DNA of 64,000 nucleotides from an uncultured Actinomycetota bacterium (GTDB taxonomy: Bacteria > Actinomycetota > Actinomycetes > Streptosporangiales > Streptosporangiaceae). Both the position numbers and the translations under genes were made by a program. The notes under the pieces are model-generated. The model did not search any database. It was not told the DNA's origin and saw only the letters and a program-made list of their open reading frames with translations. Positions 49,296 through 64,000 of this stretch are shown here, piece after piece (within the stretch, counting starts at the first letter, position 1; every line of letters begins with the position of its first letter). Location of the stretch: positions 72,397 through 136,396 of the forward strand of contig CAWEHB010000001.1 of the NCBI GenBank assembly GCA_963808705.1, written 5' to 3'.

Positions 49296-51020
49296 TCAGC
49301 CTGGCGCCACGCCGGTCAGCTCGAACCGGTTCACGTCGACCAGGCCCCGGTCGGTGATCCTCAGTTCGGGGATCACCGACAGGGCCAGGAAGCTCAGGTG
49401 CATGAACGGGGCCGCGATGCCGACGCCGAGTGCCGCGGCTGCGGCATGCTCGACCGCCTCCACCTCCGCGGCCACGCCGGCCACGGGCTTGTCGCTCATC
49501 AGCCCGCCGATCGGCAGCGGGACCTCGGCGATGACCCGGCCGTCGAGTATCGCCACCTGCCCGCCGCCGATCTCGGCCAGCCTGGCCACGCCGGCCGCCA
49601 TGTCGGCGGGCCCGGAGGCGTCCAGGGCCCCCACGACCATGCAGTTGTGCGCGTCGTGGGCCACGGTCGAGGCGATGGCGCCGCGCGCTAGCCCGAAGCC
49701 GTGCACGTAGCCCAGGCCGATGCGGCCGGTCTCATGGTGCCGCTCCACCACGCCGATGCGGGCGATTCCCGCTGACGCGTCCGTGACATCGAGCACGAGG
49801 TGCCTGGTGGTGAGCGTATCTGGCTCGATCCCGATTACCCGCGCCAGCCCGCCTGCGGGCGGCGCCAGCGCCAGCGCCGCTGGCCCGGGCGGTGACGCCA
49901 GGTGGACCGAACGGCGCATCCAGCCGGGCGCCGGCACCGAAGGCACGGTCCCGGCGATCACCTGCCCGCCCTCGGCGGCCAGTTTGCCCGCCCGATAGAC
50001 CCGTACCGGCGAGAGGCGATCGAGGGAGTCGAAACAGAGCACGTCCGCCTGATAGCCCGGGGCCAGCCAGCCAAGATGGTCGAAGTTGTGATACTCGGCT
50101 GGGTTCGCCGTGGCGAGCACGAGGGCGTCCTCCACCCGCACACCGCAGGAAACGGCCAGCCTGACACAGTCATCCACGTGGCCTTCGGCGACGATCGTGT
50201 CCGGCTCGCGGTCGTCGGTGCAGAGCGCGACCCGCGGCGTTCCGTGCTGCAGCACGGTCGGGATCAGGGTGGCCAGGTTACGGCTCGCCGACCCCTGCCG
50301 GGCAAAGATCCACATTCCCTTGCGGCGCTTCTCGGCCGCCTCCGCCAGCGTCGTGCACTCGTGGTCGGACTCGATCCCTGCGGCCAGGTAGGCGTCGAGC
50401 TGCCGGCCGGCCAGCCCGGGTGCGTGCCCGTCCACCCGGCGGCCGCCGGCGGCGGCGATCTTCGCCAGCAGTTCGGCATCGCCGGCCACGACGCCGGGAT
50501 AGTTCATCACCTCGGCGACTCCGATCGCGCCGAACTCGTCGAGCAGCTGGCGGACCTCGGCGGTGTGCAGCTCCGCCCCCGGGCTCTCGAACGGCGAGGC
50601 CGGCACACAGCTGGACGCGCAGATCCCGAAGGTGAACGGCAGGCCCGCGGCCGCCTCCGCCAGGGCCGCGACGCCACGGACGCCGAACACGTTGGCGATC
50701 TCGTGCGGGTCGGCGGCCACCGCCGTGGTGCCATGCGGGAGGACGGCCCGGACGAACTCATCAACCCAGAGCTTGGTCGACTCCAGGTGCATGTGAGCGT
50801 CGATGAAGCCAGGCGTCAGCGCGGCGCCGGACATGTCGGCGACCTCTCGCGCATCGCGCGCGCCCCATCCGGCGATCACGCCATCGGCCACGGCCAGGTC
50901 CGTGTCGACCCATTCCCTGGTGCCGGGGACGAAGACTCTCCCGCCGGTGAGCAGGAGATCAGCTGGCTCGTCGCCGCGAGCGACGGCCAGGACGTGCGGC
51001 GTGCCTTTGCGTGCGGACAC
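49296..51020 (-). CDS. ade: Adenine deaminase
   Basis: LTPGFIDAHMHLESTKL, GTTAVAADPHEIANV, DGHAPGL.., SDHECT, HDAHNCMVVG. Length 574 aa. Confidence 0.9.
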   Translation of the reverse strand: MSARKGTPHVLAVARGDEPADLLLTGGRVFVPGTREWVDTDLAVADGVIAGWGARDAREVADMSGAALTPGFIDAHMHLESTKLWVDEFVRAVLPHGTTAVAADPHEIANVFGVRGVAALAEAAAGLPFTFGICASSCVPASPFESPGAELHTAEVRQLLDEFGAIGVAEVMNYPGVVAGDAELLAKIAAAGGRRVDGHAPGLAGRQLDAYLAAGIESDHECTTLAEAAEKRRKGMWIFARQGSASRNLATLIPTVLQHGTPRVALCTDDREPDTIVAEGHVDDCVRLAVSCGVRVEDALVLATANPAEYHNFDHLGWLAPGYQADVLCFDSLDRLSPVRVYRAGKLAAEGGQVIAGTVPSVPAPGWMRRSVHLASPPGPAALALAPPAGGLARVIGIEPDTLTTRHLVLDVTDASAGIARIGVVERHHETGRIGLGYVHGFGLARGAIASTVAHDAHNCMVVGALDASGPADMAAGVARLAEIGGGQVAILDGRVIAEVPLPIGGLMSDKPVAGVAAEVEAVEHAAAAALGVGIAAPFMHLSFLALSVIPELRITDRGLVDVNRFELTGVAPG

Positions 51021-51034
51021 CGGTCACCTCCGGG

Positions 51035-61949: not shown

Positions 61950-63320
61950 TCAGTCACGGCGCACCCCGGTAAACAGCACGGCGACGCGCTCGTCCGCGCC
62001 GACCACCCCGGACTGCCTCAGGTCGAGCAGCCCGGCCAGGCCAGCCGACCCGGTCGGATCAACCGCGATGCCGGTCGCGGCGCCCAGTTCGTTCGCCTCG
62101 GCCAGCCTCTCCTCGGTGACGACCAGTGGCTGGCCGCCCGTGGTGAGCATGGCGCCGACCACGGCTCGCCAGTCGTAGGTCTCGTCATCGAGAATGCCGG
62201 TCGCGATGCTCTTGGGCTCGCTCTCCCATGGCCACATGTAGGCCGAACGGTGCTGCGCGGCCGAGGCGAGCGCCCGCCCGACGTCCGCGCGGCGCAGCCG
62301 TTCGGCGTTATTGCCCTGGCCAGCATCATCATCTTGGGGCAGCAGGGCACGGACCCGGGCGTACGCGCGTTCGAGCGGGTGGGCGCCGGTGGTCTGGACG
62401 GTGTGCAGCCGGGGCTCGCGGGCGATCGCGCCAAGCTCGGCGGCCTCGCGCAGGCCCTGGGCGCACGCGCTGGCCAGGGCGCCGCCGCCGACCTGGATGA
62501 CGATATGGTCAAACGCCGTCCCGGCCAGGTCTGACGCGATCTCATAGGCGATGGTCTCGCCGCCCTCGATCGCCAGGCCGTTCTCGTTGCCCTGGCAGGT
62601 GAAGGGCACCGCCCCGGCCGCAAGTTCCTCGCGCAGCCGCAGGTAGGCGGGATCGCCCGCTACCCCGGGCTCGCGCGGGCAGGCCACGACGTCGCTGCCC
62701 AGCCGGCGCAGCCGGGCCACGGTGCCGGCATCCGCGTCGGCCGGGACGAACACCCGAAGCCGCCGGCCGCCGGCCCGGGCCACGACGGCCGCGGCGAGGG
62801 CCGCGTTCCCGCAGCTGGCGATGGCCAGCGTGGAGCGGCCGGCCGGGGTGAGCCCGAGCCGCTCGGCGACTTCGAGGTGGATCAGCAGGCCCATCAGGTG
62901 CCGGCCCTTGTGCGACCCCGACACGTTCCCCGTCTCGTCCTTGACCCACACGCCGCCCGATTCCGAAAAGCCGAGCCGATCGCTCAGCAGGGTGTTCCTG
63001 TGCATGGGCGTGACCCGGAAGCCGCGGGAGTCCACCGCCGCCACCGATCGCTCGAGTGCGGCGATGAGCTGCACGTACTCGTCATCGTCCAGCCCGGCGT
63101 CCGTGGCGAGATGGTAGGAGTGCATGAGCGACCGGTAGCGGGCGAACGGGTCGGGCTCACCGCCGTCGGGGAAGCGCAGTGTGGTGGTATCCAGCACCCG
63201 GACCAGGATGTGGTCGACGTCGTCACCGTTCGCGTTGGGACACTTGAACGGATACGCCTCCGTGGCCGCCGCTACCCAGCCGCAGCCAGCGCAGCGAATG
63301 GATGAGCGCGCGGTGTTCAC
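61950..63320 (-). CDS. Fold-type II PLP-dependent enzyme (threonine-synthase/TrpB-like) with an N-terminal Cys-rich segment
   Basis: VKDETGNVSGSHKGRH (candidate PLP lysine), and GNAALAAAVVA... Length 456 aa. Confidence 0.75.
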   Translation of the reverse strand: MNTARSSIRCAGCGWVAAATEAYPFKCPNANGDDVDHILVRVLDTTTLRFPDGGEPDPFARYRSLMHSYHLATDAGLDDDEYVQLIAALERSVAAVDSRGFRVTPMHRNTLLSDRLGFSESGGVWVKDETGNVSGSHKGRHLMGLLIHLEVAERLGLTPAGRSTLAIASCGNAALAAAVVARAGGRRLRVFVPADADAGTVARLRRLGSDVVACPREPGVAGDPAYLRLREELAAGAVPFTCQGNENGLAIEGGETIAYEIASDLAGTAFDHIVIQVGGGALASACAQGLREAAELGAIAREPRLHTVQTTGAHPLERAYARVRALLPQDDDAGQGNNAERLRRADVGRALASAAQHRSAYMWPWESEPKSIATGILDDETYDWRAVVGAMLTTGGQPLVVTEERLAEANELGAATGIAVDPTGSAGLAGLLDLRQSGVVGADERVAVLFTGVRRD

Positions 63321-64000
63321 AGGTCCTCGATCACGCCGGTGCGGGCGTTGAACTCCTCGATGAGGCCATCCCAGCTGGCCAGCCTCTCCCGCAGGTCAAC
63401 CCAGTAGGCCTGCGTTCGGCGGGCCGTGAATTCGGCCACGCCGACGCCCTGCTGCTCAACCCAGGTGTAGTAGCCGAGGTTGAAGATGCGCTCGCGGTCC
63501 CGCAGGCTCGGCTCCAGCAGATGGTCGGTATCTGCCGCGAGCATCCAGCGGCCAAAGGCCTCTGCGGCATCTGCCTGGTCGAAGCCCAGCGGGTAGTCCC
63601 TGGCTTGGACCCGCTCACGCTCGCTCCCGTACATGGCCGCCCCGTCGGTAGCCACCGTCATGACCACGTCGTGTGATCCGAGCCCCAGGTATCTGGCGGC
63701 CTTGACGGCGGCCAGGATGTTGCAGATGCTCGACAGCCCGAACTCCGGCAGTGCGGCCAGGGTCGGCTCAGGCACCTTCCGTTTGGCGCGCAGGTAATCC
63801 AGCCCGGCCGGGGCGCTGAACAGGACGCCGAGCTGGTCGGTGGCCGCATCGGAGACTGCCGTCACGATGTCGGTGTTCATGACGTTGTGAATGAGCGGGA
63901 TGTGCTTGTCCCCGATGCCCTGGATGTTGTGCTCGCCGAAGCCGTTGTAGAGCATGGTCGGGCACTCCAGCGCCTCGACCGCGACGACCGCCGCGCCGTA
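63317..64000 (-). CDS. Fold-type II PLP-dependent enzyme (cysteine-synthase/OrtB-like), C-terminal part. The 5' end is outside the window.
   Basis: The reading frame stays open and GC3-rich upstream of the first Met (YGAAVVAVEALECPTMLYNGFGEHNIQGIGDKHIPLIHNV...). The stop overlaps the next ATG (ATGA). Confidence 0.7.
   Translation of the reverse strand, partial: YGAAVVAVEALECPTMLYNGFGEHNIQGIGDKHIPLIHNVMNTDIVTAVSDAATDQLGVLFSAPAGLDYLRAKRKVPEPTLAALPEFGLSSICNILAAVKAARYLGLGSHDVVMTVATDGAAMYGSERERVQARDYPLGFDQADAAEAFGRWMLAADTDHLLEPSLRDRERIFNLGYYTWVEQQGVGVAEFTARRTQAYWVDLRERLASWDGLIEEFNARTGVIEDL

Follow-up and report, generated by a model that had tools for sequence, protein, structure and literature searches.

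An actinobacterial eleven-gene operon as a candidate variant of reductive uricolysis with an F420-class oxidoreductase and two carbamoyltransferases

The 64,000-nt stretch of DNA analyzed here (the window; coordinates are window positions unless a contig is named) comes from contig CAWEHB010000001.1 of an uncultured Actinomycetota bacterium of the family Streptosporangiaceae. Its last part carries an operon for two pyridoxal 5'-phosphate (PLP) proteins, a fused iron-sulfur/molybdopterin enzyme, an SsnA-like amidohydrolase, a luciferase-family (LLM) oxidoreductase, two carbamoyltransferases (CTases), a three-subunit xanthine dehydrogenase (XDH) and an adenine deaminase. We found that this operon, together with a convergent YgfM/XdhD-like gene pair, a permease gene and a nearby hydantoinase gene, probably constitutes one purine-to-pyruvate locus, a variant of the reductive uricolysis that proceeds through 2,8-dioxopurine. 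This reading is based on the SsnA marker, the presence of both molybdenum-enzyme architectures, the conserved synteny, the exchange of the LLM gene for a UacX-like gene in one related locus, the motifs of the CTases and the presence or absence of the locus as one block. As judged from the genes, the row is best described as a real, coherent and widely distributed new variant of a now-known pathway, parts of which had been flagged earlier. An initial interpretation of the same DNA (the sequence-only reading) had proposed a variant, undescribed purine-ring degradation pathway; the first adjective stands, while the second applies only in part, because an F420 reductase (PMC12507026) and paired CTases (PMC4016543) had been pointed out before.

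Known and proposed pathway

The reductive uricolysis of Escherichia coli and Clostridium was reconstituted in all its steps in 2025 (PMC12507026; bioRxiv 10.1101/2025.04.24.650524), which supersedes the statement of the sequence-only reading that several steps in E. coli and gut anaerobes were still unassigned. In the known pathway, XdhD-YgfM in E. coli or XdhAC in C. sporogenes converts urate to 2,8-dioxopurine (PMC12507026; bioRxiv 10.1101/2025.04.24.650524), and YgfK or UacX reduces 2,8-dioxopurine further, UacX being the proven reductase of C. difficile (PMC12507026). SsnA then opens the ring to give ureidomethyl-hydantoin, which HyuA converts to 2,3-diureidopropionate; YgeW removes one ureido group, with ATP made by the carbamate kinase YqeA, and YgeY removes the other, and YgeX leads to pyruvate (PMC12507026; bioRxiv 10.1101/2025.04.24.650524). 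Which ureido group is the target of YgeW is disputed, and a commentary restricts the pathway to obligate or facultative anaerobes.

In the pathway proposed here, AdeC and the PucCDE-type XDH would form urate from adenine, hypoxanthine and xanthine, as indicated by their family-level assignments. The reduction of urate at C6, which gives 2,8-dioxopurine, would then fall to the fused enzyme of the operon (FeSMo865), to the convergent pair (FeSMo982/FAD246) or to both, as homology and context suggest. The LLM oxidoreductase (LLM1) may dearomatize 2,8-dioxopurine with F420H2, and the SsnA-like protein, which is encoded directly upstream of LLM1 and is translationally coupled to it, would by its homology open the ring to ureidomethyl-hydantoin. 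A HyuA-like enzyme would yield 2,3-diureidopropionate; this assignment is weaker, since the gene is not part of the operon and in many relatives is not close by. Phosphorolysis would remove both ureido groups, with CTaseA taking one and CTaseB the N-alpha-carbamoyl group, so that two carbamoyl phosphates rather than one would be formed. In the last and weakest step, PLP499 and PLP456 may convert 2,3-diaminopropionate or ureido-alanine to pyruvate and ammonia.

SsnA-like hydrolase and LLM oxidoreductase

SsnA was used as the cluster marker by Li et al., whose network also lists SsnA proteins of Actinomycetota (PMC12507026). The SsnA-like protein of the operon aligned with E. coli SsnA over the full length with 37% identity (275 bits), and all conserved motifs were aligned. 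Among the curated NCBIfam models, it scored 413.6 bits on NF005540 (cut-off 444) and 407 bits on TIGR03314 (cut-off 455.5), which is about three times the score of the next family (137 bits). The shortfall is due in part to an insertion of 31 residues rich in Pro, Gly and Asp (residues ~306-336, window ~58304-58396); upon its removal, the scores rose to 424.5 and 416.7, respectively, both still below the cut-offs. This insertion was partly present in a close relative (L010; L-numbers denote public contigs or loci of relatives) and was found neither in the other orthologues compared nor in E. coli SsnA. We regard the SsnA-like protein as a candidate for the hydrolase that opens the ring of reduced 2,8-dioxopurine.

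The gene that overlaps the end of the ssnA-like gene encodes LLM1. The top 17 NCBIfam matches of LLM1 were all F420-dependent LLM families, with Mer as the best, and its matches among Protein Data Bank (PDB) sequences were F420 enzymes, with Mer at E 2.5e-39. A comparison of its AlphaFold2 (AF2) model gave the same picture; the top 29 structural matches were all F420 enzymes, and the Mer-F420 structure came first with a TM-score of 0.84. By its nearest relatives in sequence and predicted structure, LLM1 is thus Mer-like and belongs to the F420 class, F420 being its predicted cofactor. From its position, its F420-class fold, the absence of YgfK and UacX, and the UacX exchange in one relative (L074, see below), we infer that LLM1 is a candidate F420H2-dependent 2,8-dioxopurine reductase in place of YgfK/UacX. 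A database protein of 520 residues (P0124), 92% identical to LLM1, matched both PF00296 and the amidohydrolase family PF01979; it could be an LLM-amidohydrolase fusion or an artefact of gene calling.

Molybdenum enzymes

Two fused [2Fe-2S]/molybdopterin proteins are encoded in the locus, and their family assignments differ. FeSMo865, in the operon, matched TIGR03311 ("selenium-dependent xanthine dehydrogenase") over model positions 2-845 of 848 with 980 bits (cut-off 830.45) and had no FAD domain. It reached 233 bits on TIGR03313 (XdhD), which places it clearly outside the XdhD family, and its identity to E. coli XdhD and XdhA was 27-29%. The canonical active-site Glu and Arg pair of XDH was retained. 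The characterized member of TIGR03311 is presumably EF_2570. In the work of Haft and Self, this fused FeS/Mo protein is the only Mo-hydroxylase locus listed for the ygeW-ssnA cluster of Enterococcus faecalis. These family relationships make FeSMo865 a candidate for an XdhAC/EF_2570-type oxidoreductase acting on urate/2,8-dioxopurine.

FeSMo982 and FAD246 are encoded on the opposite strand, and the stop codon of the FAD246 gene overlaps the start of the FeSMo982 gene. FeSMo982 was 37% identical to E. coli XdhD over the full length (562 bits), compared with 441 bits to XdhA; XdhD was its best E. coli match, even though its TIGR03313 score of 681.7 bits was below the cut-off of 1101.9. The pair is a second candidate urate/2,8-dioxopurine oxidoreductase. 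The sequence-only reading had recognized a core of SsnA, XdhD, CTase and PLP proteins shared with E. coli; the shared theme was borne out, but the operon gene that it called XdhD-like encodes the TIGR03311 protein, and the true XdhD/YgfM-like pair lies at 43730-47418, outside the range that it had covered.

Glu606 of E. coli XdhD, the proposed urate orienter, was considered as a discriminator between Mo enzymes and was dropped, since the alignment was gappy and XdhA also aligned a Glu at this position. Genes for YqeB and YqeC, markers of the selenium cofactor, were found neither in the window nor in L002, a public contig that extends past the window edge, and a YqeB-like gene was present in one of the 49 related loci with full flanks.

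Carbamoyltransferases and carbamate kinase

CTaseB scored 242.7 bits on TIGR00670, narrowly above the cut-off of 236.95 for aspartate carbamoyltransferase (ATCase), and it keeps the carbamoyl-phosphate site and the alpha-carboxylate residue Arg167. The site for the aspartate beta-carboxylate reads E-P-V-T in place of T-R229-V-Q231, and the HPLP motif reads HSLP. These motif states were found in 54 of 54 aligned orthologues, except for the Q231 position (50/54). PyrB was considered as an identity for CTaseB and was ruled out, despite the passing ATCase score, by the lost Arg229/Gln231 site and the lost HPLP motif. The loss of the cationic Arg229 next to an invariant Glu would suit a substrate with an amino or ureido side chain and not a carboxylate. 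CTaseB fits subgroup 2 of the pseudo-ATCases, which is defined by H[ST]LP, loss of R-x-Q and an adjacent ygeW homologue (PMC4016543); its P-V-T at the R230-Q232 position differs from the "GX[SC]" string given there, of which the alignment may be the cause.

CTaseA was 34% identical to E. coli YgeW (178 bits) and 70 residues shorter, and its scores on the YgeW models were 176 (cut-off 453) and 167 (cut-off 500). It shares with YgeW two specific motifs, K-S-W (D-V-W in ornithine carbamoyltransferase, OTC) and KP[IL]SVP. The OTC models gave 259.7 (cut-off 306) and 246.8 (cut-off 280.85), and the scores on the N-acetylornithine carbamoyltransferase (AOTC) models were also below their cut-offs. An identity as OTC was rejected on these scores, on the absence of the ornithine-site motif D-x-x-x-S-M-G and on K-S-W in place of D-V-W. 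CTaseA therefore appears to be a short YgeW-type carbamoyltransferase (YTCase). The labels "PyrB-like" and "OTC-like" of the sequence-only reading do not hold as functions, as CTaseB has lost the aspartate-site residues and CTaseA has YgeW-specific motifs. In the simplest assignment, CTaseB would act on an N-alpha-carbamoyl amino acid and CTaseA on an omega-ureido group, which agrees with the order of Liu et al.

The two CTases could also be fitted to an oxidative, allantoate-type route with ureidoglycine and oxamate carbamoyltransferases, as proposed for Rubrobacter xylanophilus. The pseudo-ATCase Rxyl_2847 cleaved allantoate in an arsenate- and phosphate-dependent manner (PMC4016543), and two CTases with the carbamate kinase of the relatives would suit such a scheme. 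In contrast, no uricase, 5-hydroxyisourate (HIU) hydrolase, 2-oxo-4-hydroxy-4-carboxy-5-ureidoimidazoline (OHCU) decarboxylase or allantoinase was found in the window or in L002, and none was among the protein families that recur in 80 related loci. The HSLP motif of CTaseB is that of pseudo-ATCase subgroups 2 and 3 and not the HPLA of subgroup 1, the ureidoglycine transcarbamylases (UGTCases), and an oxidative route would leave the near-obligate SsnA-LLM pair and the PLP pair unexplained. We consider such a route very unlikely and return to reductive uricolysis.

In the four nearest relatives (L006, L007, L009 and L010), a carbamate kinase gene lies between the genes for CTaseA and the XDH FAD subunit; its product scored 379 bits on NF009007 (cut-off 266). 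A 959-bp segment that carries the kinase gene in the closest relative, L010, is missing here (window 54848-54874), where a gap of 13 nt is left. Judged from this alignment, the loss of the kinase is a lineage-specific deletion.

The PLP pair

The first two genes of the operon encode proteins of the fold-type-II class. PLP499 gave a weak match to the Pfam PALP family (E 4.8e-7; 29.9 bits, cut-off 35), and its best PDB sequence matches were cysteine synthases (E 1e-13). We assigned it to the CysK/beta-substituted-alanine-synthase-like fold with extra N- and C-terminal helical parts. The AF2 model of a 92%-identical homologue (pLDDT 79) was superposable on O-acetylserine sulfhydrylase (OASS), beta-cyanoalanine synthase and cystathionine beta-synthase (CBS) with target-normalized TM-scores of 0.69-0.77, with the exception of one longer, full-length CBS chain (TM-score of 0.52). 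K112, the S-T-G-N-Y loop and the Gly-rich loop of PLP499 were invariant in 23 homologues. PLP456 is threonine-synthase-like with a Cys-rich stretch at the N-terminus; every score on ThrC, dehydratase and CysK models was below cut-off, and its PDB matches included ThrC (E 6.5e-17) and O-ureido-L-serine synthase (E 6e-8). The lysine that forms the Schiff base is present in both proteins, as are the loops for substrate and phosphate.

No BLASTP match to YgeX was found at 1e-3 for either protein, and no model of diaminopropionate ammonia-lyase (DAPAL) was among the NCBIfam matches listed for them (for PLP456, the best 25 of 28). By these comparisons, PLP499 and PLP456 resemble YgeX in the shared fold only. 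The sequence-only reading had counted the PLP enzymes as part of the core shared with E. coli; as a theme this stands, but they are not homologues of YgeX beyond the fold. Two ways of assigning a function were tried and abandoned. The top 120 listed homologues of PLP499 (73-92% identity) were only called "cysteine synthase" or "PLP-dependent enzyme", and the structure search for PLP499 returned generic CysK, CBS and beta-cyanoalanine synthase folds only.

Taken at face value, the row could be a chance or regulatory juxtaposition of purine salvage (XDH and AdeC) with pyrB, argF, thrC, cysK and a generic LLM gene. CTaseB nominally passes the ATCase cut-off (242.7 versus 237), and the names "cysteine synthase" and "Mer" are given to these proteins in public annotations. 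Against such an explanation, Arg229 of CTaseB is replaced in every orthologue aligned and the Q231 position is changed in nearly all; CTaseA lacks the OTC site and has YgeW motifs; and PLP499 and PLP456 are far under the CysK and ThrC cut-offs. Moreover, the set is kept with SsnA in several phyla despite rearrangement, and its genes are joined by overlapping stop and start codons. A mere juxtaposition is thus scarcely credible, and a catabolic locus for purines is far better in keeping with these features.

Conservation across related loci

The SsnA-like protein was scanned against species-representative genomes, which revealed at least 544 relatives. The best 80 were analyzed (55-87% identity of the SsnA-like protein), each seen to 10 kb on either side of SsnA, with gene presence scored by tblastn; 49 of these loci had full flanks. 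Among the Actinomycetota, the hosts were Streptosporangiaceae, Micromonosporaceae, Nocardioides, Acidimicrobiales, Gaiellales and Thermoleophilia; the others were Chloroflexota, Armatimonadota, Dormibacterota and Binatia. A cultured strain, Nocardioides taihuensis CGMCC 4.7318, has the cluster (L033).

LLM1 directly followed SsnA in 70 of 76 loci, and in 50 of 80 loci the FeSMo865 gene immediately preceded the ssnA-like gene. Both CTases were found in 42 and the PLP499-PLP456 pair in 43 of the 49 full-flank loci. A fused Mo enzyme was encoded in 40 of the 49 (FeSMo865 in 33, FeSMo982 in 11, both in 4), carbamate kinase in 28, a hydantoinase in 15 and YgeY in 3, and neither YgfK nor YgeX was found in any of them (0/49 each). 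YgfK, YgeX and YgeY also had no match in the window or L002, and YgfK had none in the 80 loci as a whole. HyuA-like genes adjoining the cluster recurred in varying arrangements.

Three modules, PLP499-PLP456, Mo-SsnA-LLM and CTaseB-CTaseA-kinase, were differently ordered by lineage and nevertheless kept together, which argues for selection on their co-location. Within the operon, FeSMo865 and the FAD246-FeSMo982 pair replaced each other, the latter being found in Nocardioides-type loci. The most informative exchange was observed in L074 (Limnocylindrales), where a gene with a DHO_dh domain (PF01180) and 4Fe-4S motifs (11403-12521) directly follows SsnA and no LLM gene is present, while the CTase and PLP modules are the same. 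This UacX/PydA-like gene was the only UacX-like one found. Two other loci without LLM, L015 (12636-14831) and L071 (8083-10143), encode proteins of 686-731 residues with 4Fe-4S domains, and in L065 no replacement was identifiable, only two small open reading frames (ORFs) without a Pfam match. Among the loci analyzed, the LLM gene was mostly actinobacterial; both full-flank loci of Chloroflexota (L074 and L065) were without it.

Clustering of all ORFs of the 80 loci added only parts of ABC transporters, an 8-oxoguanine deaminase and antisense shadow ORFs as extra families. The 8-oxoguanine deaminase gene is the first gene of the Nocardioides-type clusters (L027 5560-7002; 589.5 bits, cut-off 532), and its product would feed oxidized guanine into urate.

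Weighing of the proposed pathway

Several observations count against reductive uricolysis in this form. The SsnA-like clade falls just under both curated SsnA cut-offs (the N. taihuensis orthologue scored 417), and LLM1 is under every curated F420 subfamily cut-off (for Mer, 176 versus 276). FeSMo982 keeps an Arg (the Arg880-equivalent) where E. coli XdhD has Gln, and according to a commentary on the 2025 pathway the regiospecificity of Mo hydroxylases is not readable from sequence. In 5 of the 49 loci, no second Mo enzyme was found within 10 kb. The hydantoinase gene is outside the operon, is within 10 kb in only 15 of the 49 loci and, in one relative (L090), is part of a three-gene unit without a purine locus. 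A carbamate kinase gene is absent from the window, and none was found in L002 either. Lastly, a single PLP enzyme would suffice for diaminopropionate, whereas two are conserved.

Some of these points would also suit a different role, in which the SsnA/LLM/CTase/PLP module degrades another reduced N-heterocycle (directly reduced urate or xanthine, an 8-oxoguanine or pterin-type compound, a pyrimidine or a hydantoin) and the Mo enzymes are extra purine hydroxylases. The SsnA scores and the five loci without a second Mo enzyme nearby are consistent with it, as are the pterin substrate of Mer, the nearest characterized relative of LLM1, the 8-oxoguanine deaminase of the Nocardioides-type clusters and the canonical XDH Glu/Arg pair of FeSMo865. 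On the other hand, the module is accompanied by a fused Mo enzyme in most loci (40/49), as well as by XDH, purine deaminases and permeases, and the LLM slot of L074 is filled by a reductase of the UacX type, a family with shown activity on 2,8-dioxopurine. Two CTases and a C3-processing PLP pair also suit the diureido-C3 intermediate of the purine route. We therefore regard another heterocycle as an unlikely substrate, and a variant of reductive uricolysis is preferred.

Organization of the operon

The operon consists of eleven consecutive intact minus-strand ORFs in 49296-64000, the first of which crosses the window edge by ~0.8 kb (Table 1). The GC content is 69-77% all along the window (70-72% for the genome), and all eleven called frames have the codon-position GC pattern of real genes. 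Strong Pfam matches were obtained for 10 of the 11 products (top-domain E 1e-32 to 5.6e-73), PLP499 being the exception. Curated NCBIfam models gave equivalog-level calls for three operon proteins: FeSMo865, AdeC (TIGR01178, 497.5 bits, cut-off 472.5) and the XDH Mo subunit (TIGR03196, 847.5 bits, cut-off 783.65), which keeps the active-site E, R and catalytic E motifs.

Table 1. Coordinates of the operon genes and of neighboring features of the locus.
Feature	Position	Strand	Basis or remark
PLP499, CysK-like PLP protein, first gene	63317 to beyond 64000; full gene to ~64816 (499 aa)	-	
PLP456, ThrC-like PLP enzyme	61950-63320	-	Pfam PALP, E 5.9e-43
FeSMo865, [2Fe-2S] + molybdopterin fusion	59308-61905	-	TIGR03311
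SsnA-like amidohydrolase	57884-59311	-	NF005540 (best family)
LLM1, luciferase-family oxidoreductase	56823-57887	-	PF00296, E 5e-68
CTaseB, ATCase-like carbamoyltransferase	55854-56816	-	TIGR00670
CTaseA, OTC/YgeW-like carbamoyltransferase	54867-55844	-	YgeW similarity
XDH FAD-binding subunit	53960-54853	-	PF00941 + PF03450; best NCBIfam model XdhB-type, below cut-off
XDH [2Fe-2S] subunit	53412-53963	-	PF01799 + PF00111
XDH molybdopterin subunit, PucD type	51035-53431	-	TIGR03196
AdeC, adenine deaminase, last gene of the row	49296-51020	-	TIGR01178, PF13382
Perfect GC-rich hairpin with a 14-bp stem and without a T-run, where the adeC and permease genes converge	49228-49259	-	Read from sequence
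NCS1-family nucleobase permease, convergent with the operon	47589-49205 (public call starts 47721)	+	PF02133; TIGR00800, E 8e-31, below cut-off
FeSMo982, XdhD-like [2Fe-2S] + molybdopterin fusion	44470-47418	+	E. coli XdhD similarity
FAD246, YgfM-like FAD subunit	43730-44470	+	TIGR03312, 77.6 bits (best, below cut-off); 30% identical to YgfM
Formate-tetrahydrofolate ligase (FTHFS)	41807-43603	+	PF01268, E 2.5e-240
pdxH, pyridoxine/pyridoxamine phosphate (PNP/PMP) oxidase	L002 7444-8103 (~window 65.2-65.9 kb)	- of L002	Divergent from PLP genes
HyuA-like dihydropyrimidinase/D-hydantoinase	L002 6024-7463 (~window 65.9-67.3 kb)		Separate transcription unit; TIGR02033, 581 bits (cut-off 393)

The order and coordinates of this tightly coupled row were as given in the sequence-only reading, which had spoken of at least 11 genes. 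L002, which is 99.88% identical to the window over 12 kb, completes PLP499 and shows a 400-bp intergenic region and then the divergent pdxH gene upstream of it, followed by a unit for an LLM protein, a CN-hydrolase and a hydantoinase; the gap and the divergent gene set the number of genes at exactly 11. Of the four ATGA junctions reported earlier, those at 59308/59311, 57884/57887 and 53960/53963 were present, as was the 20-nt overlap, which joins the XDH FeS and Mo genes; the one at 63317/63320 is instead GTGA, because PLP456 begins with GTG. The remaining gaps measured 6, 9, 13 and 14 nt, with one of 44 nt (61906-61949), in line with the earlier limit of 14 nt and its single exception. The LLM oxidoreductase, the second CTase, the three-subunit XDH and adenine deaminase were likewise correctly named as additions to the E. 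coli set. A hydantoinase, an M20 peptidase and a carbamate kinase are indeed absent from the window, but the hydantoinase gene of Table 1 lies 2.5 kb past its edge.

The hairpin downstream of adeC may mark the end of the transcript; a consensus terminator scan did not call it. Scans for sigma-70 promoters and intrinsic terminators gave nothing useful, as expected at a genome GC above 70%, and no match was obtained when L002, the 400-bp leader included, was scanned against Rfam (E up to 0.1). In a second assembly (L001/L003, ERZ25039540 contig_31407), the sequence is essentially identical with 32 gap openings relative to the window, and several operon genes are called as fragments; these are probably sequencing or assembly indels and not pseudogenes, the window copy being intact.

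Genomic surroundings

The hydantoinase, 42% identical to HyuA, is encoded in a three-gene unit upstream of pdxH (L002 4132-7463, ~window 65.9-69.2 kb) together with the CN-hydrolase and an F420-class LLM protein of TIGR03842 (443.6 bits, cut-off 295). As judged from the families of its products, this trio has the appearance of a reductive route for pyrimidines or hydantoins, with the LLM protein standing in for PydA. A full-text literature search found no paper on an LLM/CN-hydrolase/hydantoinase trio. The trio is kept at 89.7% identity in L090, a relative without the purine locus, and another relative has the TIGR03842 LLM gene alone; as independent support, these contexts are suggestive only.

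In L090, the hydantoinase gene is directly followed by the Smr, PfkB and IndA genes that correspond to window 41120-37887. Because L090 skips the intervening region entirely, ~41.1-65.9 kb (to L002 7421) constitutes one presence/absence block of ~25 kb, which contains a holin-like ORF, FTHFS, the YgfM/XdhD-like pair, the permease, the 11-gene operon and pdxH. The pdxH gene is divergent from the PLP genes in L010 too and may reflect cofactor supply or chance adjacency. The FTHFS gene borders the locus in the present genome; in two loci of the Gaiellales type (L056 1676-3358; L083), it immediately precedes the PLP pair. Anaerobic uricolysis in E. coli and Enterococcus uses formate as a co-substrate (PMC12507026); a link of FTHFS to the purine pathway is speculative.

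Positions 1-41000 contain unrelated genes, with no genes for F420 biosynthesis or selenium among them. At 37597-39323, near the purine locus, adjoining genes encode a PfkB kinase and an Indigoidine_A protein of the pseudouridine-5'-phosphate glycosidase type, likely a pair for pseudouridine catabolism. We also observed an exact repeat of 652 bp (28679-29330 and 32767-33418) and a 2.2-kb repeat with 85.6% identity (30355-32512 versus 34473-36638); both are tandem paralogous sets among MauE/DUF4232-type genes and are unrelated to the operon.

Significance and comparison with known systems

The locus and its at least 544 relatives suggest that a re-tooled pathway occurs commonly in soil bacteria of the Actinomycetota, Chloroflexota, Armatimonadota and other groups, and if so, estimates of purine nitrogen and carbon recycling in soil would change. 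A broader reading, which we put forward tentatively and consider rather doubtful, is that many soil Actinomycetota and allied phyla, some of them aerobes, run an O2-independent uricolysis driven by F420H2. An Fe-S-free LLM protein would dearomatize 2,8-dioxopurine; a YgeW-type enzyme, together with a novel N-alpha-carbamoyltransferase for diaminopropionate, would turn both ureido groups into carbamoyl phosphate and so yield up to 2 ATP per urate; and a hitherto unknown heteromeric CysK-like/ThrC-like PLP enzyme would free the C3 unit. If true, this would overturn the confinement of the pathway to anaerobes and add three activities that are new for their families. The YgfK step is demanding, as it needs anaerobically reconstituted 4Fe-4S clusters. 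If LLM1 does the job of YgfK, a small, single, Fe-S-free protein may prove simpler to use in engineering uricolytic strains or enzymes. The second, ATCase-derived CTase offers a direct way into the question of which ureido group the YgeW-type enzymes cleave. A tractable host is available in N. taihuensis CGMCC 4.7318 and a possible second one in Nocardioides sp. JS614, known for its arrangement of pseudo-ATCase and ygeW homologue (PMC4016543).

Compared with the pathway of E. coli and Clostridium, the overall makeup of the locus is similar but not identical. Shared features are the SsnA-type hydrolase with a reductase gene adjoining ssnA, a CTase of apparent YgeW type, a HyuA-like hydantoinase nearby, both architectures known for the urate-reducing Mo enzyme, the XDH, purine deaminase and permease in the vicinity, and the carbamate kinase of close relatives. 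In contrast, a Mer-like LLM protein of the F420 class takes the place of YgfK/UacX, a pseudo-ATCase is found without YgeY, and two other PLP proteins without YgeX. YqeB/YqeC are not encoded in the window, and the carriers belong to the soil Actinomycetota and allied phyla, unlike the gut or facultative anaerobes of the known pathway.

Two earlier reports touch on parts of this variant. Li et al. noted, in one sentence and by Pfam coloring, Chloroflexota SsnA neighborhoods with a putative F420 luciferase-family reductase and not YgfK/UacX (PMC12507026); the F420 LLM protein beside SsnA agrees with that note, whereas the second CTase and the PLP pair are not mentioned there. Barba et al. (2013) found in Nocardioides sp. 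JS614 a pseudo-ATCase gene adjoining a ygeW homologue, xdh and hyuA, and left the function open (PMC4016543). The layout of Nocardioides-type loci such as L033, the HSLP motif and the loss of R-x-Q are in common with that cluster, although SsnA, the LLM protein and the PLP pair are not discussed there. In a full-text literature search, no paper characterizing this F420 enzyme, the second CTase or the PLP pair was found.

Two further systems resemble single stages of the proposed route. The arginine deiminase pathway, with its catabolic OTC and carbamate kinase, likewise couples phosphorolysis of a ureido group through carbamoyl phosphate to ATP; here, a single C3 diureido acid would be processed by two CTases in succession, and the kinase gene is missing from this copy of the locus. 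The reductive pyrimidine route (PydA, PydB and PydC) differs in that the substrate proposed here is a bicyclic purine and the decarbamoylation would be phosphorolytic, not hydrolytic. The overall sequence of events is nevertheless alike: the ring is reduced, a cyclic amidohydrolase opens it and the ureido group is removed, and the LLM/CN-hydrolase/hydantoinase trio adjoins the locus.

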